Assembly (NCBI GenBank): GCA_963555755.3 | Contig: OY820905.2 | Coordinates: 3,520,001 to 3,584,000, forward strand | Length of the DNA stretch: 64,000 nt | Direction: 5' to 3' | Source of the DNA: Nitrospirales bacterium | GTDB lineage: Bacteria; Nitrospirota; Nitrospiria; Nitrospirales; UBA8639 | Shown here: positions 1 through 25,905 of the stretch, one piece after another | Layout of the letters: each line of letters opens with the position of its first letter | How positions within the stretch are numbered: the stretch's first letter is position 1 | The notes under the pieces: model-generated | The model's input: the letters and a program-made list of their open reading frames with translations, nothing else | Databases searched by the model: none | What the model was told of the DNA's origin: nothing | Program-made: the position numbers and the translations under genes

Positions 1-2924
1 TGAAGGATCGCGTGTTTTTGAACGATGGACGAGATGACACTCGGCATCGCTTCAATGATAGCCAGCAGCCGAACCGGTTCGTGGTAATGAACATCACCGT
101 TGTTGACGGTCTGTAGGGGAAAGCCCATTTGTAAATCGCTTTGGCTTCCCAACATCATCCCAACACCACCCACCACATTGTGCAGAACCTTACTCCCACT
201 GCCATAGACCCATGGGTCAACCGCCGAGAAATAATAGCCCAGATTAATCCACTCTCCGACAATCAAGGGCGCTGTCATAATTTTTTCGAGGATGGCGCCT
301 TGGGGATCGGCAATTGGATCATAGGAATGTAAAAAGACACGGCCGCCCAAATTCAAGCCTTTGGTCAGCTTTCGTCTTCCAATTAAAAAGGCGGCATTTC
401 CTGCCAGTCCCCATTCCGGACGAGGGTTGGCCCAATCGCAGCTACGTTCCTCCACATGAGCAAAGGCCTTTTCTGGAGAAATCTCTGTCGGAGCGTTTGG
501 GATGCGACGGCACCGTTCCAGAGCCTGATTGGCTCCGGCTTCTTCGAGATCCTTGCGCAACACCTGTAAATCCTCTCTATGAGTTTCGGGAAATACTTCC
601 AGGTCGTAAAACGTGACCCGATCAGTGGTGGTATTGTGCTTGCCCGGAAGAAACCAGGTGTCATCAGGAATGGGTAATCCCTTCTCTTTGAGGATGCGAC
701 GAACTTCCGGCTCGTTGGCCATTGCGGCAAAGACGCGTGCGTTCGGATCCCCTGGAGCTCCACCGCACGCGCCACAATCCAATGCTCCAAAATAGGGATT
801 GTTGTCGGTCTCACTGCCATGCCCACACAGGCAAACTAACCGACCATAATTTTGTGTGAGCCCCATCGCACGCAGTCCGTTTTCTATGAACGTGGCCCGT
901 TCCGTCAGAGAGAAACCCTGTGAGAGCCCAACAGGAATCCCTTCAGCATTCACATCTCCTACTTTTGGGTGTTGAGGATCGGATGGTGCTGACACCGAAA
1001 TCTGTGTCGGCACCGTATGGGTAAACCAACCCCCGATGGTCGATGTGATTGCGTGAAATGGTTTTTGGAGCAGCGTTTTGCCAACCAGACCTAAACTAAA
1101 AAAGACCCCCAGCACATCAATCACCATCATCGAGCCAATCGGGTTATGCTTTAGATCGTGGAACAGATGATGACCGAGCTGATGCCAGCGCGTGCCAGAA
1201 GAATATTTTTGCAATGCCCGTTCTTCTCCCAGCCGAGGCACTTCTGTGACCGCATGGTTGGGTGAAAGTAACACAGGGCATAAGGCTAAACGTTGGTCAC
1301 TATCAAAGGCTTGATGACTGATTGGAATGCCAAAAAATCCGGCGAACCCTAAGGTTTCATAGGGGCCTTGGGCTTCAATATGGCGGCGAAATGATTCGGA
1401 TCGCACATCAATACAAAACACGAGTTGCGCCCGCGGGCGCATTTCTAAGGCCGGAACAGTCCCTCGATGCGCAGAAATTTTTTGAAGGATCTCCCCGCGA
1501 AAACCCTCTTCATACGCCTCGAGCCACACTGGGCCATGGCGATCTGCGGGAAAACCTTCCAGCCAACTCAACAAGGTCTGGGCATCCGAGAAGGAGAGGT
1601 CGTGCAGCTCTATTGGAGACAGCTCAAGAAACTGTGCAAGGTGAAACAACCGCCAGGCATCCCGGCAAATAGCCTGTGTCCGGGGATCAACAGCATGAGC
1701 GCTTTCCCTCACTTGGTTCTCATATTCATCCGGTCGATCCTGCCAAAAGGCGATCAACGCGGAAGCGGTTCCATCAATCCCCCACTCTCGCTGACAGATG
1801 ATTTGGGCCAGTTCCAGTTCATAGAACAGGCGAACGGCTAGATACTGTGTGGTGTCAATGGGGTGCTTGTGTTGCGCATGATACGCTGGATTTTCCCCAA
1901 GCCATCGAATGTACCGCGTCCAACCCGGCAATAATGATAACTGCCTTGACAGATAATCTTTCCATTGTTCTTGTGGGATTCCAAGACGATGCAAACTGGC
2001 TACGACTGCATCTTCAGGTTCGTTTGGAAGATCGTGGATTTTTTGTGAGAAATCTTTTATCCCAAGAAATGTTCCTGAATGATCTTGTTGAACCAATTCT
2101 CGCCAAGCCTGATAAAAGCCTTCGTGTCGTAAGGGCATTTCCCATCCGGCTAACCCTTCATCAAGAAAGGCCGCCACCCATTTGATGAGTTGACCGTTGA
2201 TTGACTCGACCAATGTTGTTCCGGCCAACACATCCACCCAATCGCTGAGCGTTCGCTGAGCTGGAAGCGAAATATTCAATTGAGCGTGAGGGTCATCTGA
2301 AACGCCAGAGAGGGAACTCCTCGATGTTGGATCGCTGGAATGGGCATCAGATAGTTGCAGGACGGCCAAAGTGCTCTTCCACAAATTTGTGAGATAGGCC
2401 TCCTCAGGATAATCTCGACAATGCTCACATTCTCTGATCGTTCGTTCGATGATTCGTTGCCGAGATTCATCTGAAAGGTCTTGACGAAAACGCTTGGTGG
2501 CCCTACCCCCACTGAGTTCCCATTGCAGGAGGGTTGTCTCACAAGGTTCAAACCCATGGACGAGGTGCAATGCCCAAATATCAAGGGCCGTCACCCGGCG
2601 GCTTCCTATTTGGACAGAATCTTGTTTTTCTGGTCGAGGTCCAACTCTCGCGAAAGCACGCTTGAGGCTTTCGGGGGTAATGCGACCATCTCGATAGAAC
2701 TGCCGATACTCTTCATTTGGCAGATACCCATTTCCGCCTACCAGGCGTTTGCCTTTTCGAACCGCCTGGTCAAACGGAAGATATTCCAATCCATGAATAG
2801 GATTCTGGGCGACCATCGTTCTCATAGGCCAAAACGGAGCAATCGGTTCGCTCGCCTGTTCAACAGTCTGTCGTACCTGATCGCGCTCTTCTTGGGAAAT
2901 CGTATTTGTGGAAGTGATGCTCAT
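1..2924 (-). CDS. dabA: DUF2309/DabA (MpsB-like) inorganic carbon transporter subunit, beta-carbonic-anhydrase-like; 3' end beyond the window edge
   Basis: Manual minus-strand translation from ATG 2924: MSITSTNTISQEERDQVRQ...APFWPMRTMVAQNPIHGLEYLPF...QLVFCIDVRSESFRRHIE...LCGHGSETDNNPYFGALDCGACGG, the DUF2309 Zn-ligand motifs. Not in the ORF track because no stop lies in the window. Confidence 0.92.
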   Translation of the reverse strand, partial: MSITSTNTISQEERDQVRQTVEQASEPIAPFWPMRTMVAQNPIHGLEYLPFDQAVRKGKRLVGGNGYLPNEEYRQFYRDGRITPESLKRAFARVGPRPEKQDSVQIGSRRVTALDIWALHLVHGFEPCETTLLQWELSGGRATKRFRQDLSDESRQRIIERTIRECEHCRDYPEEAYLTNLWKSTLAVLQLSDAHSSDPTSRSSLSGVSDDPHAQLNISLPAQRTLSDWVDVLAGTTLVESINGQLIKWVAAFLDEGLAGWEMPLRHEGFYQAWRELVQQDHSGTFLGIKDFSQKIHDLPNEPEDAVVASLHRLGIPQEQWKDYLSRQLSLLPGWTRYIRWLGENPAYHAQHKHPIDTTQYLAVRLFYELELAQIICQREWGIDGTASALIAFWQDRPDEYENQVRESAHAVDPRTQAICRDAWRLFHLAQFLELSPIELHDLSFSDAQTLLSWLEGFPADRHGPVWLEAYEEGFRGEILQKISAHRGTVPALEMRPRAQLVFCIDVRSESFRRHIEAQGPYETLGFAGFFGIPISHQAFDSDQRLALCPVLLSPNHAVTEVPRLGEERALQKYSSGTRWHQLGHHLFHDLKHNPIGSMMVIDVLGVFFSLGLVGKTLLQKPFHAITSTIGGWFTHTVPTQISVSAPSDPQHPKVGDVNAEGIPVGLSQGFSLTERATFIENGLRAMGLTQNYGRLVCLCGHGSETDNNPYFGALDCGACGGAPGDPNARVFAAMANEPEVRRILKEKGLPIPDDTWFLPGKHNTTTDRVTFYDLEVFPETHREDLQVLRKDLEEAGANQALERCRRIPNAPTEISPEKAFAHVEERSCDWANPRPEWGLAGNAAFLIGRRKLTKGLNLGGRVFLHSYDPIADPQGAILEKIMTAPLIVGEWINLGYYFSAVDPWVYGSGSKVLHNVVGGVGMMLGSQSDLQMGFPLQTVNNGDVHYHEPVRLLAIIEAMPSVISSIVQKHAIL

Positions 2925-2956
2925 GAATCGTCGTGTACGGAACAATGATTGAACAT

Positions 2957-3006
2957 AAAAAAAGCCAACCGCTTTTACCTCCTGTTCAGAGGACCACGGT
3001 TGGCTT
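2957..3006 (-). terminator. Intrinsic terminator/attenuator in the dabA leader
   Basis: 10-bp stem AAGCCAACCG...CGGTTGGCTT merging into a 7-U run, about 30 nt before the dabA ATG. Confidence 0.75.
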
Positions 3007-3073
3007 GCACTGTGGCTGACCGTATTCACCTAGCGAGTCAACCACCCCACAGCCTATGTTGAAAGGTTAGGCT
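2957..3073 (-). ncRNA. Candidate cis-regulatory leader RNA upstream of dabA (two hairpins, a conserved linker and a terminator)
   Basis: Stems AGCCUA/UAGGCU, GUGGUUGAC/GUCAGCCAC and AAGCCAACCG/CGGUUGGCUU followed by a U run; shares ACAGUGCAAGCCA and CUUUnnACAUnGG with the sulP leader. Confidence 0.65.
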
Positions 3074-3226
3074 CAATCCTAGAATTCCTGCCACCCTCAG
3101 CTGAAACCCGTGAAGGAAGCAGGGGCCTATCCTTGACCTCTCAAAAATCAATAGCTTATATCATCTTTTTTAGCAAGGACTCTTGGTCGGAACAAGAGAT
3201 TTTTAGTCAGCAGGAGACTATTGCCC

Positions 3227-3628
3227 ATGGGTTATGGACAAAGCAAAGGCGAGGCGGAGACAGCCATCCGCAATGCCATCATTAAATTCGAACAAGAATT
3301 TATGGGACGCGGGCCAACGGACGTCAAAGCCTTCATCCTTCGTGACATGGTCTTGGTGAGACTGAAAGGGGTGTTAACTCCAGCGGAACGCCAACTTGCC
3401 AAGAATCCCGAAGGTGTTGAAATGGTCAAACAGATGCGACAAAACTTGATCTCACAAGGGCGAGAAAAACTCTGTAGCCAAATTTCCGCTATTACCGGGA
3501 CCGAGGTCACAGGATTATTTACCGATATCGAGACCCAAATCGGTGAACGCGTGATGGTCTTTACCCTCGAAAACGACCTTGACGCGACCTTCCGCGAGCC
3601 CTCAACTTTTTCAAAAACTTCACAGTAG
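3227..3628 (+). CDS. DUF2294 / MpsC-family protein
   Basis: KGEAETAIRNAIIKFEQEFMGRGPTDVKAFILRDMVLVRLKGVLTPAERQL is typical of DUF2294; CAGGAG RBS upstream; divergent from dabA. Confidence 0.85.
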   Translation: MGYGQSKGEAETAIRNAIIKFEQEFMGRGPTDVKAFILRDMVLVRLKGVLTPAERQLAKNPEGVEMVKQMRQNLISQGREKLCSQISAITGTEVTGLFTDIETQIGERVMVFTLENDLDATFREPSTFSKTSQ

Positions 3629-3790
3629 TTTGGAAAGAATATAGACAATTCGGTCCCGTGATCCTTCGGAGGAGGATTGGGGAAAAATAGGATTGTAAAC
3701 AATACCAGAGCGGTGACAAGAGGTTTGTCCCAGGGACGGGCGACCGGAAGCAGGCAAACGGCGAGAGGTGAGCGGAGAGAATCGATCTAT

Positions 3791-3946
3791 TTAGAAAATC
3801 TTAGCAAGCAACGCGCGGATTGGATTCACAGGCGCTTCAGAATGTGAAGGACTTTTGTTTTCGGAGGATGAAGCGTCCTTTTCGACTTTCTTCGTGACCT
3901 TTTGATCACGATGAAGACTTCTGTACAAGAGATCAAAATCACTCAT
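3791..3946 (-). CDS. Small 51-aa hypothetical protein (MSDFDLLYRSLHRDQKVTKK...NPIRALLAKIF)
   Basis: GGAGG RBS before the ATG and a sigma54 promoter just upstream; below the ORF-track size cutoff. Confidence 0.6.
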   Translation of the reverse strand: MSDFDLLYRSLHRDQKVTKKVEKDASSSENKSPSHSEAPVNPIRALLAKIF

Positions 3947-3984
3947 GATATTCCCTCCAGGTAATTATCAATTACCTATAACAA

Positions 3985-4001
3985 AGCAAAGATGATGCCA
4001 A
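3985..4001 (-). promoter_or_regulatory. sigma54 -24/-12 promoter
   Basis: Minus strand TTGGCATCATCTTTGCT fits TGGCA-N6-TTGC with GG-N10-GC spacing. Confidence 0.7.
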
Positions 4002-4087
4002 ATCCCACAAAGATAATTTTTCAGAAAATTGATAAAAAACAATAACTTATGAATGCAAAATGGCTTATTGAATAACAACAATTCATC

Positions 4088-4129
4088 AATGAGCAAAGAC
4101 GCACAGGTTCGAATGAGCGAATTCGCACA
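4088..4129. promoter_or_regulatory. Putative tandem enhancer (bEBP UAS) sites
   Basis: AATGAGCAAAGACGCACA and AATGAGCGAATTCGCACA: imperfect palindromes repeated at 24-bp spacing, about 90-130 bp upstream of the sigma54 promoter. Confidence 0.45.
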
Positions 4130-4297
4130 CAAATGTTGAAATCTGATCTAGAGAGGAGGGTGAAGAAGTACACTAGAAGGCCAGGCGTGGCGATGCGCCG
4201 TCAAGAGAAAGAAGAGTGGAAAAGTGTATAAACCTGCATTTCATCTTTCCGGCACTGTCAGGTAAAAGAAAGTCCTATGAAGAGAAATCCTCCTTTC

Positions 4298-4390
4298 GTC
4301 ATCCTCGCAATTTTTAAGCGGGGATCCATCTGCTTTTTTTCCTGGCAGAAACAGCAAGATGGATTCCCGCTAACGACCGGCGGGAATGAC
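4298..4390. repeat. REP/RPE-like palindromic element
   Basis: GTCATCCTCGC...GCGGGGATCCA...TGGATTCCCGC...GCGGGAATGAC nested inverted repeats. Confidence 0.6.
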
Positions 4391-4417
4391 GGGGCAAGAG
4401 TAAAGTTACCTCTTTCT

Positions 4418-6082
4418 TTATGAATCGTGAAGGTCCTTTTGCCAGAGTTTTGGCTTCTTATGAGCAGCGACGATAGAATCAGCAATGGGTTGATGCTCTG
4501 CTAACCCCCGAACCAATAATTCACAATCTTTTTCCTCGAATTCTATAATCCATTCATAGAGCTTGGACATCACGGTGTGATCGACTAATCGAGTGTCGGC
4601 GAAATTCAGCCTGACGTTTTTTCCTTCTTCCAGGTAGCGATGAAGATACTTGCGCAACGGGATCCAGGTGCTAAAAACAGCTGAATCTTTCACATAGATG
4701 GTCACGGTGTTGTCATCTGATTCGACAACCTCAACGTTCAATTTGAAAAACGAGGAAACCGGGGCTCCATTGATGAGATGAATAACCACTTTCACTCCGA
4801 TCCCAATAGCAATGCCTTTCAGAAGATCAGTTGCGAGGACTCCCACGATCGTAGACATAAAAACAATGAACTGGTCTTTTCCCAAATGATACATGTGGAC
4901 AAATTCTTGGGGTGACGCCAATCGAAAACCCGTAAAGACTAACAATGCGCCCAAAGCCGCCAACGGGATTTGATTGATCAGCCCGGGGATTAAAGCCACA
5001 AACACCAATAGAAAAAGCCCATGATACATATTGGCAAACCGCGTCCTCGCTCCATTGTCGATATTCGCCTTACTTCGAATAATCTCTGAAATCATCGGCA
5101 ATCCACCAACCAAGGCCGCCAGCGTATTGCCGACACCCACCGCAAGCAAATCTTGATCCATATTTGTCTTTCGTCCCCAGGGATCAATACCATCAATCGC
5201 CTTCGCACTGAGCAACGACTCCAGGCTCCCGATTAACGCAAACATGATCACGTACTTTATGCCGATCGAAGTCGTGAGCCCCGAAAAATCGGGAAGGGTC
5301 AGAGCACTGAACATGTTTTTCGGAACATTCACCAAGAACTGTGTTCCTAAGACATATGTCTGATCATGAAAGGCATACGTTCCTTCCTGTCCTACACCCA
5401 AAAATAGCCCCAGAGGAACGGCGACGAACAACACGATCATCGGCGCCGGCACGATTTTCAATTTTTGATTTTTGATGAAGGTATACCCAAACATGATCAG
5501 TATGCTCACAATTCCAATTAAGCCAATTTTTGGATTCATCTCCATCACAAATGTTGGGAAGTTGGCTAAGAGGTCTAATGGTGTCCCTTCAGAACTAAGC
5601 CCCATCATGATCGGAAACTGCTTGGCGATAATGATGACCCCAATGGCTGCCAACAATCCATGAATCGCCGTCGTTGGGAAAAACTCTCCCAGGATCCCTG
5701 CCCGGAACACCCCAAGGAAAATTTGAAGAACACCAGCGGCGACCCCAACGCCCAGAGCCAACCGGTACGCTTGGTAATCCGCTGCCGGATCCTTTCCTCC
5801 TGTAAAACCAAATTCAGTGACGCAGCCAATCGCGATGACAATGAGCCCCGCAGCTGGGCCTTTAATCGTGAGTTCGGAATTACTGAAGAACGTGGCTAAG
5901 AGACCACCGATGATGGCAGTAAAAATTCCAGAAATGGCTGGATACCCACAGGCTAAAGAAATGCCGAGGCACAGGGGAAGGGCAATGAGAAACACCAGAA
6001 ACCCAGACAGAAGATCTTCCGGGAAATGCGCTCGCAGCCCTGCGAGATTTCCTTTTGGTATGGATGCAGTGTTTGATTGCAT
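4418..6082 (-). CDS. SulP/SLC26-family anion transporter (probable bicarbonate transporter, BicA-like) with a C-terminal STAS-like region
   Basis: DLLSGFLVFLIALPLCLGISLACG, GPAAGL, GGLPMISEIIRSKANI motifs; likely start MQSNTAS at 6082. Confidence 0.9.
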   Translation of the reverse strand: MQSNTASIPKGNLAGLRAHFPEDLLSGFLVFLIALPLCLGISLACGYPAISGIFTAIIGGLLATFFSNSELTIKGPAAGLIVIAIGCVTEFGFTGGKDPAADYQAYRLALGVGVAAGVLQIFLGVFRAGILGEFFPTTAIHGLLAAIGVIIIAKQFPIMMGLSSEGTPLDLLANFPTFVMEMNPKIGLIGIVSILIMFGYTFIKNQKLKIVPAPMIVLFVAVPLGLFLGVGQEGTYAFHDQTYVLGTQFLVNVPKNMFSALTLPDFSGLTTSIGIKYVIMFALIGSLESLLSAKAIDGIDPWGRKTNMDQDLLAVGVGNTLAALVGGLPMISEIIRSKANIDNGARTRFANMYHGLFLLVFVALIPGLINQIPLAALGALLVFTGFRLASPQEFVHMYHLGKDQFIVFMSTIVGVLATDLLKGIAIGIGVKVVIHLINGAPVSSFFKLNVEVVESDDNTVTIYVKDSAVFSTWIPLRKYLHRYLEEGKNVRLNFADTRLVDHTVMSKLYEWIIEFEEKDCELLVRGLAEHQPIADSIVAAHKKPKLWQKDLHDS

Positions 6083-6119
6083 TAAAATGGACTTTCTTAA
6101 TCCCTCAACACACTGGCAC

Positions 6120-6233
6120 AAAAAACCAGTCAGAATTCAGGGAGACCCTCCACGAATCCTCAACTGGCTTGCACTGTACCTGGGCTTAAACATCTGAAAC
6201 CCAGCTACCCTACCTACCGATGTATAAAGTGGG
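6120..6233 (-). ncRNA. Candidate cis-regulatory leader RNA upstream of sulP (second copy of the motif)
   Basis: GUAGCUGGGUUU/AAGCCCAGGUAC stem, ACAGUGCAAGCCA linker, then terminator AAGCCAGUU..AGGAUUC/GAAUUCU..GACUGGUUUUUU. Confidence 0.65.
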
Positions 6234-6351
6234 ACCACAACCATGACATCCCACCATTTGCCTGTCTTCTGTTCAAAAGAATTTTAGCTTGAGCACCCAA
6301 ATGGAGCAACTAGTTTTTTTTGTTGGGGGATCGAGTAAAAGGCATCACAGA

Positions 6352-6463
6352 AAACTCGAAATCCGAATATCGAAATTCGAAACAAATCAGAAATCCTAAA
6401 TTCGAACTTTTCAATTGGGATATTCCCATGTGTTTCGGATTTCGATATTCGTGCTTCGGATTT
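6352..6463. repeat. Heptamer-based palindromic repeat (CGAAATC/GATTTCG type)
   Basis: AAATCCGAATATCGAAATTCGAAAC ... GTTTCGGATTTCGATATTCGTGCTTCGGATTT; related copy at 37567-37758. Confidence 0.65.
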
Positions 6464-6615
6464 ACGCTCTTATTCTTCCTCCATCAACAAAGAGAACGCA
6501 AATATTTTGAAAAAGCTATAAATAGCCGACAGCACAATTGAGGAAATCAGGGATGGCTTGCCTAAGTATATCGAACCATGCGCAATGAGGGGTTCACAAA
6601 AGGTCGGACGACGAA

Positions 6616-7230
6616 TCACTCCAGCGGGACTTCAAGGACGAGTCCGCCCATCACATCATTCAATTTGAAATCACGTTTGGTAGATTCGGTATGCGCATTA
6701 TGGCAAGAGACGCAGGCACGGCTGACAGCGCGATCTGGGTAGATCGCTTTAAAATACGGTTTGTTGTTGACCATAATCTCTTCCTCAACCACTTCCCCAA
6801 ATTTCACGACCTGGTCTAACATCTCACGCTCATGGTCCGAGGCCGGAGTATTTCGTGAATTGAGGGGCCAAGGACTGATCAGGCGATAGCGAAAGGGCGC
6901 ATCCCGGACATGAAGACTGCGAGAGGCCTCGCGCAAAAACTGAACGGGCAGAGGCAGGGTCTTTTCTTTCACCCAATTTTCAGAGGCCGTCACAATAAGC
7001 ATGGCTTCCATCCGCTCAACAATATGTTGCGTATAAAATGTCCGATCCGCTTCAATAACGGCATGAAGATAATCTGCTGCCGTACGAGCAGGAATAAAGT
7101 TAGCTGGAGGGATCTGAGATCGGATGCCCCATCCTAAACCCATTCCCACTATTAGCATGAGAACCGAGAGGCCTATCAGTCGGACATTCATGCTTATTCC
7201 ATCACCTTTCTTCTCATCTACTGGAATCAT
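6616..7230 (-). CDS. DUF3365/Tll0287-like c-type heme protein with N-terminal membrane anchor
   Basis: CVSCH heme motif, LPLPVQFL, DFKLNDVMGGLVL. Confidence 0.8.
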   Translation of the reverse strand: MIPVDEKKGDGISMNVRLIGLSVLMLIVGMGLGWGIRSQIPPANFIPARTAADYLHAVIEADRTFYTQHIVERMEAMLIVTASENWVKEKTLPLPVQFLREASRSLHVRDAPFRYRLISPWPLNSRNTPASDHEREMLDQVVKFGEVVEEEIMVNNKPYFKAIYPDRAVSRACVSCHNAHTESTKRDFKLNDVMGGLVLEVPLE

Positions 7231-7364
7231 ACGAAACGGATTTTACTAAAAGACTGAATCAAGGGCCTATCATACCTGAACACAATCTTCCCCACCAGAG
7301 GAAACGGGAGCGGTTGTGTTTGACACTCAGGGAGGGCAACCTTAGGATACGGTCCAGGCTAACC

Positions 7365-9293
7365 ATGCGTATTTTTAAACGATTTAACAACCTTCCGATC
7401 GAGAAAAAACTTCTCCTTGTCTTGGTGATTCCCATTCTCGGTTTGGGAGTGCTCAGCTTCGTCACCTATAATAGCGTTCAAACCTTCTCCCAAGATGAAG
7501 ACCGTCTAAACAGGGTGTACCACGTGCAAACCACCGCTGCCGAATACATGCGACTGATTGTCGATATAGAAACAGGTTTTCGTGGGTTTGTGGTGACCCT
7601 TCAGCCGAAGTTCTTGAAACCCTACCACGCCGCCAAGCAACGAGTGTTGCAGGTGGGGCAGGCTCTTGCGTACATGGTGGAGAGCAATCCGGAACAACAT
7701 ACTGAAATTCTCAAAACCCAATCGTTAGTTCAAACATTAATGAAAGACAAAGATCGATTGATTGCACGTGCCACGGAAGGCCATCCCGATGAAGCGCTCC
7801 ACTACATTGAGTCGGGAGAAGGGTGGCAACTGATGTTAACCATTCGCGAGGAACTCTCCAAATTCAATCGTCGCGAGGGCGAAGTCCTCAGGGAAACCTT
7901 AGGGCGAACCGCACAAGATCGTTCATTTCTTTTGAGTGTGATTCTTGGCGGCGGTTCACTGGCACTCATCCCCATGGTGATTGCGTTACGGGTGTTAGCC
8001 CAGTCTATTACGGGCCCCTTAGTCACCCTGGCCAAGACAGTCGAAAACCGACCCGGTGGGATCGTCCCCGAGGTCACAGTCTTAGACCGAGGAGATGAAA
8101 TCGGCGACTTAACACGCGTCATGCATGAGATGAGTCGACAAATTCATGAGTACATTACCCAAGTTCAAAAATCCGAAGCTGAACTCAGAACATTAAACCT
8201 TGACCTGTCGACTTCAGAGTCCAAATACCGAGGCATTGTTGACCATGCCCCCTTTGGAATTTTCACGGCGAAACAAGGACGAATTATTTTTAGCAACCGA
8301 CACAATTGGATACTCGCCGGACGCAATCCCGAAGACGCGAGCAACCCCGAAGAAATCTGGGACGCGATCCACCCGGATGACCGAGAACGCGTGTCTCAAA
8401 CATTTTCTGACGCATTGGACCAACATGTGCTCTTTGAGAGCGTCTTTCGATTTCTCCACCCAGACGGCACCATTCTCAAAATCTTAAGTCGGGCTATTCC
8501 CATTCAGGATGCAGAGGGTCAAGAAATTTTGTATCAAGGTTTCAATGTTGACATTACCACGTTAGAGCAAATGCGAGAACAACTCAATCGCACCGAACAC
8601 CTGGCCACCTTGGGCCAGGTCGCGGCAGGCATTGCCCACGAAATCCGAAATCCCTTGGTCGGCATTGGCTCCACCACGTCATTATTAATGGAGGACTTTT
8701 CTCCAGGAGATGCCCAACACGAAGACCTGTTGACCATTCTTAAAGAAACCCGACGACTTGATCGCATTGTGAATCAAATCGTGGAATATGCCAGACCACA
8801 GAAATTGGTCCTGTCCTCCTTTCACATGAAATCGTTGATTGAAGAAACGTTGGAACTGGTCCAAACTCCTATTGCACAGAAGGGAATTCACGCCGCATTG
8901 GACTGTGCACCCGACCTTCCATTGATTCAGGCAGATCGTGACCAAATTAAACAGATTGTGCTCAATGCCCTTCATAATGCCATTGATGCCCTCAAACCCG
9001 AAGGAGAGCTCTCCATCGACATACAAGAAAAAACTCAAGATGGGGGACAAGGCGTGGTGGCGCATATCCAAGATAATGGCAAAGGCATTTCACCGGAAGA
9101 CCTTTCAAAAATTTTCGATCCATTTTTTACCTCTGGAAAAGAACGAGGCACAGGCCTTGGACTGGCCATCTGTCGGAATATCATTGACGCCCATGGAGGA
9201 ACCCTCAATGCCACCAGTCAAGTGGGAATCGGGACGGTATTCTCCGTGTGGTTACCCTTTACCTTACAAAACCAATCTGCCATGGTGACCTAA
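7365..9293 (+). CDS. Sensor histidine kinase (CHASE3-HAMP-PAS-HisKA-HATPase)
   Basis: DIETGFRGF (CHASE3), DEIGDL (HAMP), IHPDDRERV (PAS), AHEIRNPL, DNGKG, GTGLGL. Confidence 0.92.
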   Translation: MRIFKRFNNLPIEKKLLLVLVIPILGLGVLSFVTYNSVQTFSQDEDRLNRVYHVQTTAAEYMRLIVDIETGFRGFVVTLQPKFLKPYHAAKQRVLQVGQALAYMVESNPEQHTEILKTQSLVQTLMKDKDRLIARATEGHPDEALHYIESGEGWQLMLTIREELSKFNRREGEVLRETLGRTAQDRSFLLSVILGGGSLALIPMVIALRVLAQSITGPLVTLAKTVENRPGGIVPEVTVLDRGDEIGDLTRVMHEMSRQIHEYITQVQKSEAELRTLNLDLSTSESKYRGIVDHAPFGIFTAKQGRIIFSNRHNWILAGRNPEDASNPEEIWDAIHPDDRERVSQTFSDALDQHVLFESVFRFLHPDGTILKILSRAIPIQDAEGQEILYQGFNVDITTLEQMREQLNRTEHLATLGQVAAGIAHEIRNPLVGIGSTTSLLMEDFSPGDAQHEDLLTILKETRRLDRIVNQIVEYARPQKLVLSSFHMKSLIEETLELVQTPIAQKGIHAALDCAPDLPLIQADRDQIKQIVLNALHNAIDALKPEGELSIDIQEKTQDGGQGVVAHIQDNGKGISPEDLSKIFDPFFTSGKERGTGLGLAICRNIIDAHGGTLNATSQVGIGTVFSVWLPFTLQNQSAMVT

Positions 9294-9294
9294 C

Positions 9295-10698
9295 ATGCGC
9301 GCAACCATTTTTGTTACAGATGATGATGATGCCGTTCGAGCAGCGATCACTCGACGATTATCGCGAGGAGGCGTTCACGAAGTACGCAATTTTGACTCAG
9401 GGGAAGCGCTCCTGGAAGCTCTGGATCATGATATTCCCGACATCGTCCTGCTCGACCTTAAAATGACCGGCATCAGCGGTCTGGAAACCCTCAAGCTCCT
9501 CCGCCCCAAAGCCCCACACACCTTAGTCATTCTTCTCACTGCCTTTGGCACAGTTGAGGATGCCGTCGAAGCCATGAAGCTCGGGGCCTATGATTTTTTG
9601 ATCAAAAGCGTTGATCTCTCTGGAGTCAATCCGGTAGTCCAACGTGCCGTGGAATATCTAACCTTAAAGCGCCGCGTCTTGTTCGAATCAGAAGACGTCT
9701 CCAATCGTTATGCCTTCAACAATCTCATTGCCAACAGCGCCAGCATGCGAGAGCTCATGTCCCAAGTACAAGAGCTCACAAATAACACGAAAACGACGGT
9801 CTTGTTACAAGGTGACACTGGGACCGGAAAGGAATACATCGCCCGAATTCTTCATCACAACGGACCTCGCAAAGACGGCCCATTTGTCGGAGTCAACTGC
9901 ACCGCCATTCCCCAAGAATTATTTGAAAGCGAGTTATTTGGCTATGAACGCGGGGCGTTTACTGGCGCGACTCACCGAAAACCTGGGTTATGCGAACAAG
10001 CGGAAGGGGGCACCCTGTTTCTTGATGAAATCGGCGACCTCAATCCGTCCTTGCAAGCCAAACTGTTACGTGTCCTCCAAGAACGATCGTTTCGCCGACT
10101 GGGTGGTCAAGAAGATATCGAAGTTGATTTCCGTCTAATCGCCGCGACGAATCGCGATTTGAAAAAAGAAGTCAGCCAGGGCCACTTTCGAGAAGATTTA
10201 TTCTTTCGCCTCAATGTCGTGGCCTTGGAACTTCCACTTCTTCGCAATCGGGTTGAAGATATTTCACCATTAAGCCTTAGTTTTCTGTGTCAACACAGCA
10301 AAGACATTGGCAAAGACATCACGAACATCGAAGACGAAGCACGTGGCATGCTTGAACGCTACGACTACCCCGGCAATATTCGCGAATTGGAAAATATCAT
10401 TGAACGCGCTGTGATTTTTTGTAAGGGCAAATCATTAATGTCCGGGGACTTGCCACGAGAACTCCATGAAAGCAGTTCAAGGAAGGTGGTTGAAGCCTCA
10501 ACACAACACGACCAACAAATTTTGCGCATGGAAATGGTCTTAGGCGAACAATCACTCGCTGACGTTGAAGCGGCCATCATCGAAGAAGCCATGAGCCTAT
10601 GCGGACACAACAAAAGCTTAGCCGCACAAAAACTCGGACTCACTCGGTTCGCACTCGATCGCCGTTTAAAGAAAACCTCTGAAGAAGGGGAAGAATAA
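9295..10698 (+). CDS. sigma54-dependent response regulator (NtrC family)
   Basis: Receiver domain, [33 protein letters not shown], Fis-type HTH. Confidence 0.95.
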
Positions 10699-10713
10699 CC
10701 TGGAAGGTCGAAG

Positions 10714-12585
10714 CTAACTTGCTGCGTATTGTTCCCGCGCAGACCGACTCAGGACATTCTCAATTCTTGGTTCAGGGTGGTGATTAGACTCAACAAACTC
10801 TAACCCGGCTCGATGAGATTGAGCCCAAATAACCTTGGCCCGTAGAAAAAGAGGCAGTCCGTAATCAGAAGAGTAGAGGGTAAGATCAAGAAGACTGCCT
10901 TCTCCAATGGGTTGCTCGAGTTGCTCAAGTCCCATACCTCTAGGGCTCCAATCACTAATTTCCCCCCAAGACTGGGTTCCGAAGAGTTGAACGGCGGCGC
11001 GCCCTTGTCCAGGAACACGAGAAACCTGTCGATCATCTCTATCGATGACCGTATGAATGCGCATGAACCGTTCACGGCCCTTCACCCGGACTTCATCAAG
11101 ATAGCGTGAGTGGCAGGAGAAGGCCATAGCTTGATGGGTCGATTCGCTCATAACAATCGGCACACGGTACACCTTCGAAAGCTCTTCAAGATTCGCGGCA
11201 AGATTCACCGTATCACCAACAGCCGTATAATCAGTCCGTTGGGCTGATCCCATTGTGCCGACTAAGACCTCACCAGTGTGAATGCCAATCCCACAGGCCA
11301 GGGCGCTGCCATACTGCTTCTGAAAATGTGCGGCAAGACGCCGAAGCCGCCGTTGACAATCCAAAGCCGTGTGCACAGCTCGACGTGCATGATCGGGCTG
11401 TGAATGTGAGGCATAAAACAAGGCCATGACTGCATCCCCCATGTACTTATCAATCGTCCCACCATGGAGGACAACCGCCTCTGTCATTTCTGTGTAATAC
11501 TCACCTAAAAAATCACAGACTTCTTCAGGGGATAAGGTCTCAGCCATTCGTGAAAATCCACGAATATCCGCAAACAATACCGTGACTATTCGGCGTTGTT
11601 GAGAAACAGACCGCGGCGAATACTTTGAGGAGGGTAGGGCTGCATGAGGAGAGGAACACTCAGAAGTATAACCAGCAAACTTAGATGTCTCTTGAATCAG
11701 TCCCTTGGTGAAGAACGCGGCACACCCAAACACCAAAGCCAAAGGAACAGGGACAAGATCCACCCATAAAATTGTATGGGCGACCAACCCATAGGCCGTA
11801 GCCAAATACGCGACTCCTAGCAGTCCTACAACCCCGACACCAAGGACACTCCCCAAACGACTGGAAAGCCAAACAGCAACAAGACTCCCGACGAGAATCA
11901 AGAACAGCATGACGGGTTCGGATACTCGAGTGGGAAAGGGCGAAGGGGTTTTCCCAGCCTGGTTCCCAAGAGTCATGGCCTCATTTTTCAAAGCCATCTG
12001 AAGGGAATCAGGAACCGTATCCCCCGAAATAGTGTAGGCATTTGCCAACACCTTGCTCCACCTAAGAGTACAAGGAGGGGTACAGAATTCGTTCTTAAAA
12101 AAAATGGGATCAGTTTGTTGAAGAAAGTCCCTTGGAAATGTTAAAGGAACAAATTGTTTGTTCATAGGGAGGGAAGAAAATTCTATGGCATCCGGCTGAA
12201 TAGATCCTTGAACTCGAAGTTGCGCATGGAGGCCCCATTGTTCAATGGGCTCAAATACCCCACCAATAAAGGCTACAGTAACCGTCATGGCCACCAACAG
12301 CCCCTGAAATATTAGAAGGAGCCTTGGTTTAAACGGACTCACGAAGGAGAGCGCATGCGACCACGTCATGGTCGTCAAACAACGCTTCCAATGCTCGGGC
12401 AAGAAAAAGAAAAACAGGACTAGAAAAATAAGAAAACTCGCAAGGTTAATGGGATCAATCCCAATTTTGGTGGAGTAAGGCGAAACCCTCTTACACTCCG
12501 CTCGTATCACCCCTCGTCCATTGTCATTTTGACCCTTGGGAGAACTCTCCCCCATTCCCGCCCGGGTCACGTTCTTTCGGGCCAA
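10714..12585 (-). CDS. Class III adenylate/guanylate cyclase with membrane segments and a C-terminal PilZ-like domain; N-terminal sensor looks degenerate and the start is uncertain
   Basis: TVLFADIRGFS, IDKYMGDAVMA, GIGIHTG, YTAVGDTVN; PilZ-like RxxxR and DWSPRG. Confidence 0.8.
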   Translation of the reverse strand: MARKNVTRAGMGESSPKGQNDNGRGVIRAECKRVSPYSTKIGIDPINLASFLIFLVLFFFFLPEHWKRCLTTMTWSHALSFVSPFKPRLLLIFQGLLVAMTVTVAFIGGVFEPIEQWGLHAQLRVQGSIQPDAIEFSSLPMNKQFVPLTFPRDFLQQTDPIFFKNEFCTPPCTLRWSKVLANAYTISGDTVPDSLQMALKNEAMTLGNQAGKTPSPFPTRVSEPVMLFLILVGSLVAVWLSSRLGSVLGVGVVGLLGVAYLATAYGLVAHTILWVDLVPVPLALVFGCAAFFTKGLIQETSKFAGYTSECSSPHAALPSSKYSPRSVSQQRRIVTVLFADIRGFSRMAETLSPEEVCDFLGEYYTEMTEAVVLHGGTIDKYMGDAVMALFYASHSQPDHARRAVHTALDCQRRLRRLAAHFQKQYGSALACGIGIHTGEVLVGTMGSAQRTDYTAVGDTVNLAANLEELSKVYRVPIVMSESTHQAMAFSCHSRYLDEVRVKGRERFMRIHTVIDRDDRQVSRVPGQGRAAVQLFGTQSWGEISDWSPRGMGLEQLEQPIGEGSLLDLTLYSSDYGLPLFLRAKVIWAQSHRAGLEFVESNHHPEPRIENVLSRSAREQYAAS

Positions 12586-12987: not shown

Positions 12988-13257
12988 AACACGGCATTTG
13001 CTCTAACCTTTATGAGCAATTTTTATTCCTTGCGAATACATCGCTCTAATCCATTGAAAGTACTAGAGATTTGAAGTTGGTGAAAATTAAATGATTCTAG
13101 AGACATCCCAAAAATGGAAAAAGCGTATGAAAAAAGTGACACAGATGTAGGGCATAGCCTACGGTTGGTTTAACCTAGAAACGGCAGTTGGGCGCAAAAA
13201 AGACGTGTAAGATATTGGGGTGCATGGTGAAATAAAAAAAGTCGTGGTCACCTCGGT

Positions 13258-14699
13258 GAGTCAAGCCCAAAGTTAGTTGAAATTCTCCACGGCTCCAGGG
13301 GTCATGGTACGCGGCCTTCTTGGTCGTGGGCATCTTAAGTGTGAGTTCCCGTCGTAGGGCTTCCCGCAAGCGGTGCAAGTGCCGATAGCCTTTCACCTTG
13401 TTGAGCCGCGGCTCGATATCCAGCAACGCCGTGGCCAACCAGCGCTGCCGCTGGTTCGAGTTCGTCCACCGATCTACCTTGGCACATCGTTCTTCGACCA
13501 AAGCCTTGATCGACTCCAGACCGTGGGTCGTTTTCAAGGAGGTCCCCAAGAGGGCAACCACTCCTAATCGATGCCGCGTCAACGTTTCCTCCAGCCCTTC
13601 TGCGAGACTCTGCGTGGCCGATTGATTTCGAGTCTCCAGGTCCCGTTGCAGGCGGTGTAACGCCGTCCGGGCTTCCGCATACGTCGGGCGCTGATACGCC
13701 CGTTGCAGCCGGGTGCGCCAGGTAGCCTGTTCGCCTTTGGGGAAATGCTTCACCACATTTTCCCGTGTGTGCCACTGGAACCGTTGGCCTAGGGCTAAAG
13801 AGCCAAAGGCCTGCCGCACTGCCGCTCGCAAGCCCTTCCCGCCATCGATGATGACCAACAGGCCCTGAGCACTGTCGAGCCCGCGGTCACCCACCGACTG
13901 GAGGAACGAGGTCAGGACCTCCGCGTTTTCGGTGCCCGTCTCGACAAAGCCAAGAAGGTGTTTCTCGCCGGTGAGCGTGATGCCTACGGCGACCACCATC
14001 AGCATGTCGGCGAAGGCCTTCCCATCCAGAAACACCGCCACCAGATCCAGCTGGCTCAGGTCCCGTTCTTGGAGGGCCTTGAGCTGTTGGGCGCTGGCTT
14101 GCGTAAACGTGCGCGACACCGTGGAACTCGACAAGCCGATCGCCCCTGGCACCGCGGCGGCCGCTGTCTCATAATTGCGACACGAAATCCCCTACAGCAC
14201 ACGTTTGAGGAGCACGTCATCCAAGGCCCCGTGCGCCCGCAAGGGGGGGAGCACGGTTAACGGAATTTCGGTCTCCCCATCGGGTTGGCGCACCCGCGGA
14301 ATCCGGAGCGGCACTTGTTGGCCGGCGAGTCGGACACTGCCGGGATTACTCCCATGCCGCCGCCCGGGAAGCGGCGAGGCTTTCCGGGCATAGCGGGGCC
14401 CGGCTACCGTACAGACCTCTGCTTCCAAGAGGGCCTGAACATGGAGGAGGCCCAAGGGGCTGAGGGCCCGAATACATTCGACTTTCGTCTCCACATCAAA
14501 CGCCTCATACTGGTAGGGTCGGAGGACCTGGGCCGGCCCCAACCGTTTGGTCTTCTTGCTTCGCTTCGTGGTTTGCGCAATACTCTTCATGAAGTGGCTC
14601 CTTTCGGCTGCTGGGAAAGATGTCGGTTCTTGGTCGAACGCCATCTCACCACAGTTGAGGCAGCCACTTCAATTTTCAACTAACCTTTAGCACACACTC
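13258..14699 (-). mobile_element. IS256-family element with degraded transposase and 8-bp TSD ACCTCGGT
   Basis: TSD at 13250-13257 and 14700-14707; ends GAGTCAAGCCCAAAGTTAGTTGAA / GAGTGTGTGCTAAAGGTTAGTTGAA; transposase split over ORFs 14192-14644 and 13175-14152 (VFLDGK, IIDGGKGL). Confidence 0.85.
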
Positions 14700-23876: not shown

Positions 23877-25905
23877 GTGCGACCAGGCAAGGCTGGTCTG
23901 ATGGGAAAGGAGGCTGCGATGACTCTTTGAAAATCAGTTCATGGTCCAGTGGGTGCAAAACCCACCCAACCAAAGCGGAGCCCGGCAGGGTGGTAGCAAG
24001 CCTTGCGCCAGCGCGGGTAACCGTTATGGCGATGCGTAGGCATGCGAGCGTATGGGCCGCAGGAAATGCAGCCTCGAAAAGTGGAATATCCTGGATGTCT
24101 AGGGGCTCGGAATCTCTGAAGACCACGGCGTCGTCGCCGGTATGGGGCAAGGCGGCGGGGCATCCGGCGGGGTGAACGACTGGGGCACGTACGAAGAGGA
24201 TGATCCAGGAACCTGGGAGGCCCTCATTTCTCCCTGGGAGATACCCGGTGCCACGGGGACCCGGTGACCACTCTCCGACGAACACGCGGACGCGGGTGCC
24301 TGCGTGACTCGGTGTAGAACAAGCACTCGCCTCAGGGTAGGCCGACGGCAAGGGGAACCGGAGCTGCGGCTGAGGGGGATGAGGGAGTCGGAGGGCGGCA
24401 TAGGAGCGACAACGTCGGGGAACGGGGTGGTGCCTGGACCGGACCGAGCAAAGGCTGCCCGTGTTGATAGGAACGTCAGGAGGGAACCATGACCAAGGCA
24501 TTGATGTGGGATTCCATGTCACCGGAACTTTTGACGGTAGCGGAACGAGCGAAACGGGAACCCGAAGGACGATTTCACGCCTTGGCCCATCTCATCGATG
24601 TGCCAGCTCTGACACGCGCCTACCGACGACTCCGCAGGAATGCCGCGGTAGGTGTGGATGGTATCACCAAGGAGCAGTATGGGCAGGAGCTGGAGCGGAA
24701 TCTCCAGGATCTGCATCACCGGCTGAAGACGAAGCGGTATCGTCATCAACCGATTCTCCGGGGATATGTGCCAAAGGGGCAGGGTCGGCACAGGCCGATT
24801 GGGATATCGGCGACAGAGGACAAAGTGGTCCAAGGGGCGCTGCGGGACGTATGGGAGGCCATATACGAGACGGAGGTTACCGATAGCTCGTATGGGTTTC
24901 GACCGAAACGCGGTGCGCATGACGCGCTTCGGACTTTGAACCGAGCGGGGCATGGTGGGGAAATGAACTGGATCGTGGAGGCGGACATCGTCTCGTACTT
25001 TGACAGCTTGGATCGCACCAAGCTGAAGGAGATGATTCAGAAACGGGTCGCCGATGGGGCGCTCATGCGGCTCATTGGCAAATGCTTGAATGTGGGCGTG
25101 CTGGACGGCGAGGTGTATTCCGAGCCGGACGTGGGCACGGCCCAAGGATCGGTCCTCTCCCCGCTCCTCGGGAACAGCTACCTCCATTACGTGCTCGATC
25201 TCTGGGTAGAATCCGAAGTGAAGCCACACCTCCGGGGGAAGTGCATCTTCGTCCGGTATTGTGATGACTTCATCTTTGGTTTCGAATGCCAGGACGATGC
25301 GGAGTGGGTGATGCTGCTGCTGGGAAAGCGGATGGGAACATATGGACTGACCCTCCATCCGGACAAGACTCGCCTGTTGTACTTTGGGCGACCGTTCAAG
25401 GGGCAGCAGGCAGGCAAGGGGCCGGCCAGTTTCGATTTCCTCGGGTTCACGCTGTAGTGGAAGCGGTCCCGATATGGACGCTGGATCTTGGCATTCAAGA
25501 CCCGAGGTGCACGCCTCACGCGGGCCATTCGGTCTGTGTACGACCGGTGCCGACGCCATCGGCACCGGTCGGTGAAGGAGCAGCACATGGCGCTCGGGAG
25601 GCACGTGCGCGGCCACATGAACTATTTTGGCGTGAACGGGAATATCCGTAGCCTGCATCTTCTTCTGGTGCAGGTTCAACGTGCCTGGTTCAAGTGGCTT
25701 CGGCGTCGCAGCCAACGGACGCGCCTCACGTGGGAGAGGTATCAGGACCTGTTACGGGACTTTCCTCTTCCCCGTCCACGGATCGTCGTCCAGATCTGGG
25801 GGCGGTAACCCGCGAGCCATATCAGCGGAGGAGCCGGATGGTCGAAATGTCCTTGTCCGGTTCTGGCGAGGGCCTCGGCTGGGTGACTGGCCGGGGCTAC
25901 TCTAC
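23877..25905 (+). mobile_element. Group II intron
   Basis: 5' GTGCG at 23877; domain V/VI GAGGAGCCGGATG...GTCCGGTTCTGGCGAGGG...GGGGCTACTCTAC ending 25905; internal RT ORF. Confidence 0.88.
24516..25808 (+). pseudogene. Group II intron reverse transcriptase/maturase with an in-frame amber stop at 25455-25457
   Basis: SYGFRPKRGAHDAL, ADIVSYFD, GTAQGSVLSPLLGN, VRYCDDF, FDFLGFT; the same frame continues to PLPRPRIVVQIWGR. Confidence 0.85.

Follow-up and report, generated by a model that had tools for sequence, protein, structure and literature searches.

Two genes for inorganic carbon uptake in a Nitrospirales bacterium, dabA and sulP, are each preceded by a structured leader RNA in which a conserved hairpin overlaps an intrinsic terminator. 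Both leaders lie on the minus strand of a 64,000-nucleotide stretch of DNA (Nitrospirota; Nitrospiria; Nitrospirales; UBA8639; GenBank assembly GCA_963555755.3, contig OY820905.2, positions 3,520,001 to 3,584,000), which is referred to as the window. They almost certainly represent a real, hitherto uncatalogued attenuator. Antitermination of both leaders under low inorganic carbon, dependent on the small protein MpsC encoded divergently from dabA, is considered the most likely mechanism and, with some reservation, a probable one. By folding and conservation the hairpin is predicted to be mutually exclusive with the terminator, as in protein-dependent antiterminators of the ribonucleic antiterminator (RAT) type, and with mpsC a candidate gene for the cognate protein was found that co-occurs with the hairpin, with exceptions. 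This distribution favours a protein-read antiterminator over a stand-alone riboswitch.

The two leaders have the common layout GG-N2-3-GUR-GG-(variable stem)-AG-URC-AAGCC. Their parts and the genes concerned are the following (window positions):

3..2924, minus strand: dabA, running off the window (1013 amino acids in the genome; PF10070, E = 3.6e-262)
2957..3006, minus strand: intrinsic terminator of the dabA leader from folding, AAGCCAACCG ... CGGUUGGCUU plus 7 U, approx. -25 kcal/mol; its base shares sequence with the antiterminator's 3' end
3002..3054, minus strand: antiterminator hairpin of the dabA leader from sequence and folding, composed of GGCU (3054-3051), GUG, GG, variable stem-loop (3045-3012), AG, UGC and AAGCC (3006-3002)
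3051..3073, minus strand: AGCCU/AGGCU hairpin from folding, a candidate anti-antiterminator sequestering GGCU of the dabA antiterminator
3155..3163, minus strand: candidate extended -10 promoter TG-n-TATAAG, found by eye approx. 105 nt upstream of the dabA motif and common to locus L044
3221..3628, plus strand: mpsC (DUF2294, YbcI family), 135 codons, divergent from dabA (PF10057, E = 2.5e-37)
4418..6082, minus strand: sulP, SulP/SLC26 anion transporter (PF00916, E = 1e-53; the score of the BicA model is far below its cut-off)
6120..6170, minus strand: intrinsic terminator of the sulP leader from folding, AAGCCAGU ... ACUGGUU plus U-run
6166..6218, minus strand: antiterminator hairpin of the sulP leader from folding, composed of GGU-AG, GUA, GG, variable stem-loop, AG, UGC and AA-GCC
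6229..6254, minus strand: upstream hairpin of the sulP leader from folding, GUGGGA/UCCCAC
6281..6309, minus strand: candidate sigma-70 promoter TTGCTC-N17-TAAAAT of the sulP leader, found by eye; similar sites in loci L013, L079, L106 and L145

A preliminary description of this DNA had pointed out the same layout in the two leaders, and the hairpin, the shared 13-nt element and the terminator were all found where it had placed them. The 13-mer ACAGTGCAAGCCA is located at 3001-3013 in the dabA leader and at 6165-6177 in the sulP leader; by chance, two 120-nt sequences would be expected to share approximately 2e-4 such words. GGGU opens variable stems that differ in sequence and keep their pairing (GUGGUUGAC/GUCAGCCAC and GUAGCUGGG/CCCAGGUAC, respectively), and the 3' part of the 13-mer is the left arm of the terminator, which starts at AAGCC (3006 for dabA, 6170 for sulP). 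AAGCC serves in both leaders as the 3' end of the hairpin and as the base of the terminator. The U-runs (2963-2957 and 6125-6120) stop 32 and 37 nt upstream of the ATGs at 2924 and 6082, within the 30 to 40 nt proposed before, and the downstream genes were correctly assigned. What did not hold is the conserved first segment, CUUUnnACAUnGG: of 71 motif copies, only the two in the window have it exactly, and 3 have it with up to two mismatches. It forms a hairpin loop in the dabA leader and begins in the 3' arm of the upstream hairpin in the sulP leader. The earlier account had also left out the basal helices GUR/URC and GG/CC, which enclose the variable stem in both leaders, and the divergent mpsC.

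Folding z-scores of the whole leaders against shuffled sequences were -3.3 and -3.1. The antiterminator hairpin of sulP is the minimum free energy structure of a transcript cut before the right arm of the terminator. The basal GG(N)/(R)CC helix and the AAGCC:GGYUU base of the terminator exclude each other in folding. Since the terminated fold is favoured at full length by 4.0 (sulP) and 6.4 kcal/mol (dabA), termination is the predicted default. A consensus promoter and terminator scan reported neither the terminators of the leaders, because their loops are too long, nor the promoters, that of sulP scoring below the threshold. The RNA evidence consisted of assembled contigs, which cannot show transcript ends, and both leaders of the window were uncovered in contig set X1. 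At 6350-6465, before the sulP promoter, the sequence is AT-rich and forms a long, imperfect palindrome in which the words TTCGAA/TTCGGA recur. RNA contigs derived from different loci or organisms break off on this palindrome, their flanks being unrelated, which suggests a dispersed repeat.

Three covariance models were used for searches: R1, built from the Nitrospirales copies including the terminator, R3, covering the Nitrospirales aptamer only, and R2, built from a wider family of leaders described below. In the genome of the window R1 finds only the two leaders, at 2956-3062 (dabA, 73.9 bits) and 6117-6225 (sulP, 70.1 bits), both copies belonging to its training set. The exact 13-mer occurs three times in this 4.6-Mb genome; the third copy (C1:2529637) has no R1 match and was rejected as a leader. 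A relaxed pattern matched in 21 of 61 genomes including that of the window, and a reversed-pattern control gave three matches, all in a single 16-Mb assembly. In a pattern scan of GTDB contigs at least 119 loci were found; among the matches listed, 48 passed a filter for stem plus terminator, 47 of them from Nitrospirota, and 70 of 71 matches outside this phylum failed. The only remaining one (L093) has a terminator lacking AAGCC and was excluded from the alignment; another pattern match (L014, genome G006) lies inside an open reading frame and has no terminator. R1 matched in 40 of 151 genomes of the phylum, and matches above 30 bits were all in Nitrospirales. Weak matches (20-27 bits) in four mpsC-negative Nitrospirota genomes appear to be driven by the terminator; of these, the G183 match was inspected, and a TonB-receptor-like gene follows it.

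The alignment of 67 Nitrospirales copies (A1) has the consensus GG-N2-3-GUR-GG-(9-bp variable stem)-AG-URC-AAGCC, with the remainder of the terminator after it. GURGGGU and CAGURCAAGC appear invariant in part because the rows were collected with patterns holding these sequences. The covariation analysis bears out the kept pairing: 95.1% of 1474 cells are paired, 13 of 22 pairs show changes on both sides, and none of 500 shuffles scored as high; slid-register controls reached at most 48.7%. Many copies carry an upstream hairpin of variable sequence, and in many copies from Nitrospira a TTGAC..TATTAT-like promoter is seen approximately 100 nt upstream (both by eye). GAGCC..AGGCT, as in the 3051..3073 hairpin, was likewise found by eye in the dabA copies L027 and L040.

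The genes downstream of the 67 copies are dabB (32), mrpE (15), sulP (12), dabA (5) and nhaD (1), with two unassigned, so that 65 copies precede one of these genes. The mrpE copies inspected are located in dabA-Mrp clusters. The nhaD copy (L068, G014:C19:2184402-2184450) precedes a gene for a Na+/H+ antiporter (NF038006 above cut-off) and lies approximately 7 kb from a sulP copy. In the genome of the window, dabA is the first gene of an operon that also contains MrpE/F/G/B/C/D-like, NuoL-like and NuoM-like genes (G000 C1:3512036-3522924; subunit names by eye except MrpE), and its leader would therefore control the whole module. In several relatives an additional leader copy separates dabA from mrpE; the genome of the window has none there. 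The transcription attenuator common to both uptake systems that had been proposed is supported by the covarying hairpin, the overlapping terminator and this gene context.

No named RNA family was found to correspond to the leaders, nor had the preliminary description recognised one. With Rfam 15 at gathering thresholds, only a group II intron domain was found in the whole window. At E<=10, positions 2800-6700 gave 10 matches, none on either leader, and 18 homologous loci gave one tRNA and two sub-threshold matches to non-leader families. The Sodium model (RF03071) had nine weak matches in the genome, none at the leaders (150 of 1019 candidates scored). The sul1 motif is an orphan leader motif named after SulP-type genes. 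Its model (RF03058) gave five weak matches elsewhere in the genome and no leader match at E<=10 (150 of 956 candidates scored), and this identity was rejected.

Similarly built leaders were found in other taxa beside mpsC and dab genes. Their layout is GG-N-AG-(stem)-purine loop-(stem-loop)-AG-(stem)-AA-R-CC, and a terminator follows. In descriptor scans they were located directly upstream of dabB in all eight Bacillales DAB (DabA/DabB pump) loci, all of which are mpsC-positive, and were detected in 14 of 19 metagenome mpsC loci, 10 of 21 planctomycete mpsC loci (in part overlapping) and 13 of 30 Nitrospirota mpsC loci. Among 35 aligned copies (A5) both GG/CC pairs are invariant (35/35), the third basal position being G-A in 12, A-G in 8, C-G in 8, U-G in 4, U-A in 2 and A-A in 1, and covariation supports the structure (score 0.439, reached by none of 500 shuffles). 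Ends, upper purine loop, terminator register and gene context agree between these leaders and those of Nitrospirales, and R1, with the terminator as part of the model, matches several of them at 20-30 bits. The Nitrospirales RNA is likely, though not certainly, a member of this wider, MpsC-linked family.

The 22 downstream proteins scanned in this wider set are mostly inorganic carbon transporters, carbonic anhydrases, enzymes using CO2 or bicarbonate, or MpsC itself: MpsC (4), DabB-type (4), SbtA (2), beta-carbonic anhydrase (2), phosphoenolpyruvate (PEP) carboxykinase (2), isocitrate dehydrogenase, PEP carboxylase, a protein with aminoimidazole ribonucleotide carboxylase fold, a Sua5/YrdC fusion and DUF4015 (one each), and three proteins of no family. 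Because of these genes, inorganic carbon is taken to be the probable signal. Of the carbon, pH or Na+ response suggested in the preliminary description, carbon appears the favoured part, and Na+ and pH less so. Leaders directly preceding mpsC or its paralogues (L190:1978-2066, L194:1886-1957, L276 and L279) suggest that mpsC is autoregulated via its own leader. A dabB-type gene in a different family of the class is preceded by leaders arranged in tandem, whose two terminators follow one another (L195:1240-1424, L196:1904-2091). At two loci of Bacilli (L439 and L440), R2 matches beside mpsC have an apparently shortened terminator arm, and read-through may be fixed there.

From these data the following course of events is proposed. 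The hairpin would form first, before the right arm of the terminator has been made; by folding, the sulP leader could reach the extended hairpin unaided, and in the dabA leader the upstream AGCCU/AGGCU hairpin would compete for GGCU of the antiterminator. A modest binding energy would be sufficient to reverse the default termination. MpsC would likely bind the hairpin, presumably recognizing its small purine-rich internal loops, and stabilize the read-through fold. Read-through into the carbon uptake genes would probably occur when CO2 or bicarbonate is low, with MpsC as the putative point at which inorganic carbon is sensed. A broader reading, held tentatively and given somewhat less than even chances, is that MpsC/DUF2294 senses bicarbonate or CO2, binds RNA and acts as an antiterminator, with this hairpin family as its target. 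It would control an RNA-level regulon for DAB pumps, SulP, SbtA, carbonic anhydrase and carboxylases in Nitrospirota, Bacillota and Planctomycetota, of which the window would hold a Nitrospirales subtype with a shortened middle helix.

The dependence on MpsC is drawn mainly from distribution. In the family of the window, zero-deviation copies made up 15 of 22 model-found copies from 11 mpsC-positive genomes and 1 of 12 from 8 genomes lacking an intact mpsC (Fisher p = 0.001), counted against a consensus derived mostly from mpsC-positive genomes; these genomes are kin and not independent, so that p-values overstate the difference. This count does not include the copies that patterns had found in seven further genomes, which are biased, and the mpsC-negative genomes G019, G010 and G040 gave no model match. 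Mean terminator energies were alike (-23.5 kcal/mol with and -22.5 kcal/mol without an intact mpsC); the motif bases therefore seem to be maintained only where MpsC is present. In one complete genome an mpsC match with two internal stops was observed (G016:C1:2255042-2255365), and the motif copy there is likewise decayed. Among 101 genomes of Bacilli, R2 matched in 12 of 58 mpsC-positive and in none of 43 mpsC-negative ones (p = 0.001, or 0.004 after removal of two training genomes), and each of the 12 had a match within approximately 5 kb of an mpsC gene or fragment. In DAB-bearing Gammaproteobacteria mpsC was not detected (0 of 20 genomes). R2 did not match in 40 DAB-upstream regions, 20 each from Gammaproteobacteria and Planctomycetota, of which 38 (18 in Planctomycetota) come from genomes without mpsC; the descriptor gave two weak matches in the same regions, one per group, neither before a dab gene.

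Beyond the kinship of the genomes and the origin of the consensus, a number of observations weigh against MpsC-dependent antitermination. Near-intact copies were found in genomes without detected mpsC, namely G170 (a single contig, one deviation), G008 (a 220-contig draft) and G029 (a 90-contig draft). Neither family nor protein search found mpsC in G170, the second copy of which has two deviations by eye. Conversely, three mpsC-positive Nitrospira genomes have no R1 or R2 match in 4 kb around mpsC, two mpsC-positive planctomycetes lack such a leader in the 6 kb before dabA, and 46 of the 58 mpsC-positive Bacilli have no R2 match. The basal GG/CC helix of the Nitrospirales copies is paired in 79% of A1 and does not covary (482 of 500 shuffles as high). 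The wider family is linked by its architecture: the sulP leader is the top R2 match among 14 in the window, though only at E = 1.2, the dabA leader is missed, and the terminator-free R3 matches none of the wider leaders. According to the S. aureus MpsABC literature, cells without mpsC grow normally and show no mpsC phenotype, and E. coli was complemented without MpsC. Leaky basal read-through or a repressor role could explain the missing phenotype. The fold search with MpsC gave no decisive match. The protein of the window (135 amino acids) matches PF10057 and no other family, and the model of a relative with 89% identity (predicted local distance difference test score 95.5) has the order alpha-beta-beta-alpha-alpha-beta-beta. 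Conserved MpsC residues include R28, E54, R71 and D100 (numbering of protein P0008). The best fold match of the model had a Z of 6.6; in the comparison with the KH type II/RbfA-like RNA-binding fold, RbfA (8byv; Z 5.7, root-mean-square deviation 3.9 over 88 residues) tied with unrelated folds. No Foldseek match was obtained at E<=0.001, and a solved relative was not found by sequence, the Atlas returning MpsC clusters alone.

A protein-free riboswitch for bicarbonate, CO2 or a linked metabolite, with mpsC as a mere co-regulated neighbour lost along with the regulation, would account for the conserved internal loops, the variable stem and the overlapping terminator, for the near-intact copies in G170 and G008, and for the normal growth of S. 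aureus without mpsC. It is nevertheless regarded as rather unlikely: conservation is confined to a single hairpin core bearing two small loops, without a second conserved domain, the hairpin is absent from the 40 DAB-upstream regions and the 43 mpsC-negative Bacilli and decays where mpsC is lost, and a switch turned on by bicarbonate would have the wrong logic for uptake genes. MpsC might also read the leader and promote termination at plentiful carbon, in the manner of PyrR or TRAP, its loss leaving the genes on. Such a repressor explains why S. aureus without mpsC grows normally and why E. coli could be complemented in the absence of MpsC. In the terminator fold the core hairpin (GUR/URC and above) can still form, and the extra hairpin of dabA copies can sequester the 5' GGCU of the antiterminator. 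This role is judged unlikely, as termination is the preferred fold by 4-6 kcal/mol even in the absence of protein, and the most invariant positions of the wider family, the GG/CC base (35/35) and the adjoining loop, exist only in the read-through fold.

That 15 of 67 copies stand before Mrp-like genes headed by mrpE, and one before nhaD, is consistent with a switch that answers Na+ or pH, as Na+-I or Na+-II riboswitches do, and transport by DAB and SulP is ion-coupled. This signal appears improbable, given that the Sodium model does not match at the leaders, that the published construct sequences differ, that the mrpE copies checked belong to dabA-Mrp clusters and that the genes behind the leaders of the wider family include carboxylases and carbonic anhydrase, whose common factor is CO2/bicarbonate and not Na+. 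Terminators persist where the hairpin has decayed, and regulation could not be shown by the RNA contigs, as would be the case for unregulated leaky terminators setting a low basal level. A fixed terminator needs no conserved upstream hairpin with invariant loop bases, a fixed register and several independent operon positions, which makes this explanation very improbable.

Compared with known systems, antitermination of the RAT/BglG type is the closest mechanism, with RNA, protein and regulated genes all being different. The RAT hairpins of BglG, SacY, LicT and GlcT (GlcT-RAT in the available text of PMC2790875) are likewise internal-loop hairpins with a 3' end overlapping the left arm of a terminator, and read-through in the leaders described here would, as there, need a trans-acting protein. 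The leaders of the window differ from them in sequence and size, have no Rfam match and precede carbon genes instead of sugar genes, and MpsC, which matches PF10057 alone, lacks the CAT and PRD domains of the BglG/SacY regulators. Small structured leaders before ion transport genes, some of them ON switches via an overlapping terminator, are also known from the Na+-I (DUF1646, RF03071) and Li+-I/Na+-II (nhaA-I) riboswitches (PMC9337991 and PMC9646797, available parts). The GGGU...ACAG stem of Li+-I is superficially similar to the window leaders. Both Na+-I and Li+-I depend on a pair of hairpins, and the conserved loop of their P2 (GGGGUGGG or GUCGGGCCG in the published constructs that could be compared) is not present in the window leaders. 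An identity with Na+-I was rejected, there being neither a P1 with CGGUUG..UUCAAG base nor a GGGGUGGG-type P2 loop nor a model match at the leaders. The same applies to Li+-I/Na+-II (nhaA-I), as no second-hairpin loop of the published GUCGGGCCG type occurs in A1 and no Rfam match was obtained.

The most similar systems by gene content are MpsABC of S. aureus and ndhF-ybcC-ybcI of B. subtilis, which have the same DabA/DabB pump and the same orphan third protein (PMC6689103 and PMC8552792, in part); expression of S. aureus mpsA depends on CO2, its mRNA being 1.7- to 2.5-fold lower in 5% CO2 (accessible text of PMC6689103). A promoter-plus-terminator leader before the DabB/MpsA homologue and beside mpsC is listed for S. 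aureus as RsaX05, "Cis-acting leader of ndhF?" (PMC2790875, Table 1). In the available part of that paper it is a table entry without structure, family, partner or signal; among the texts available, it is the only printed mention of such a leader that was found. In accessible sections of further papers, ndhF-ybcC is reported as 7-fold increased without cyclic di-AMP, with nothing on a leader (PMC7857571), and the upstream region of B. subtilis ndhF appears merely as a ranked row (PMC4448311). A term look-up in the searchable text of PMC8632094 gave nothing. MpsC, or YbcI, has been set aside in the S. aureus papers as an orphan without a role, and it is given no role or is not mentioned in the available text of PMC8552792, PMC11394868 and PMC13684180. 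In the literature searched, which was mostly open-access and did not include the supplement of the 224-motif paper (PMC5737381), no description of this RNA or of a function of MpsC was found, nor any account of RNA-level tuning of CO2 or bicarbonate uptake outside cyanobacteria. If MpsC reads the leader, an orphan family gains a function, and nitrite oxidizers and Bacilli gain a named carbon-sensing switch. A small CO2-responsive protein-RNA part would serve the engineering of carbon-fixing strains.

Several other elements are encoded in the window. Just upstream of sulP (6616-12585), genes for a Tll0287-like protein, a CHASE3/PAS histidine kinase, a sigma-54 response regulator and an adenylate cyclase-PilZ protein are located. 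A transposase-like gene, of the IS256 type by eye, is split over two reading frames (13175-14644, minus strand), and the group II intron domain found with Rfam (RF02005, 119.7 bits) lies at 23956-24182 on the plus strand.

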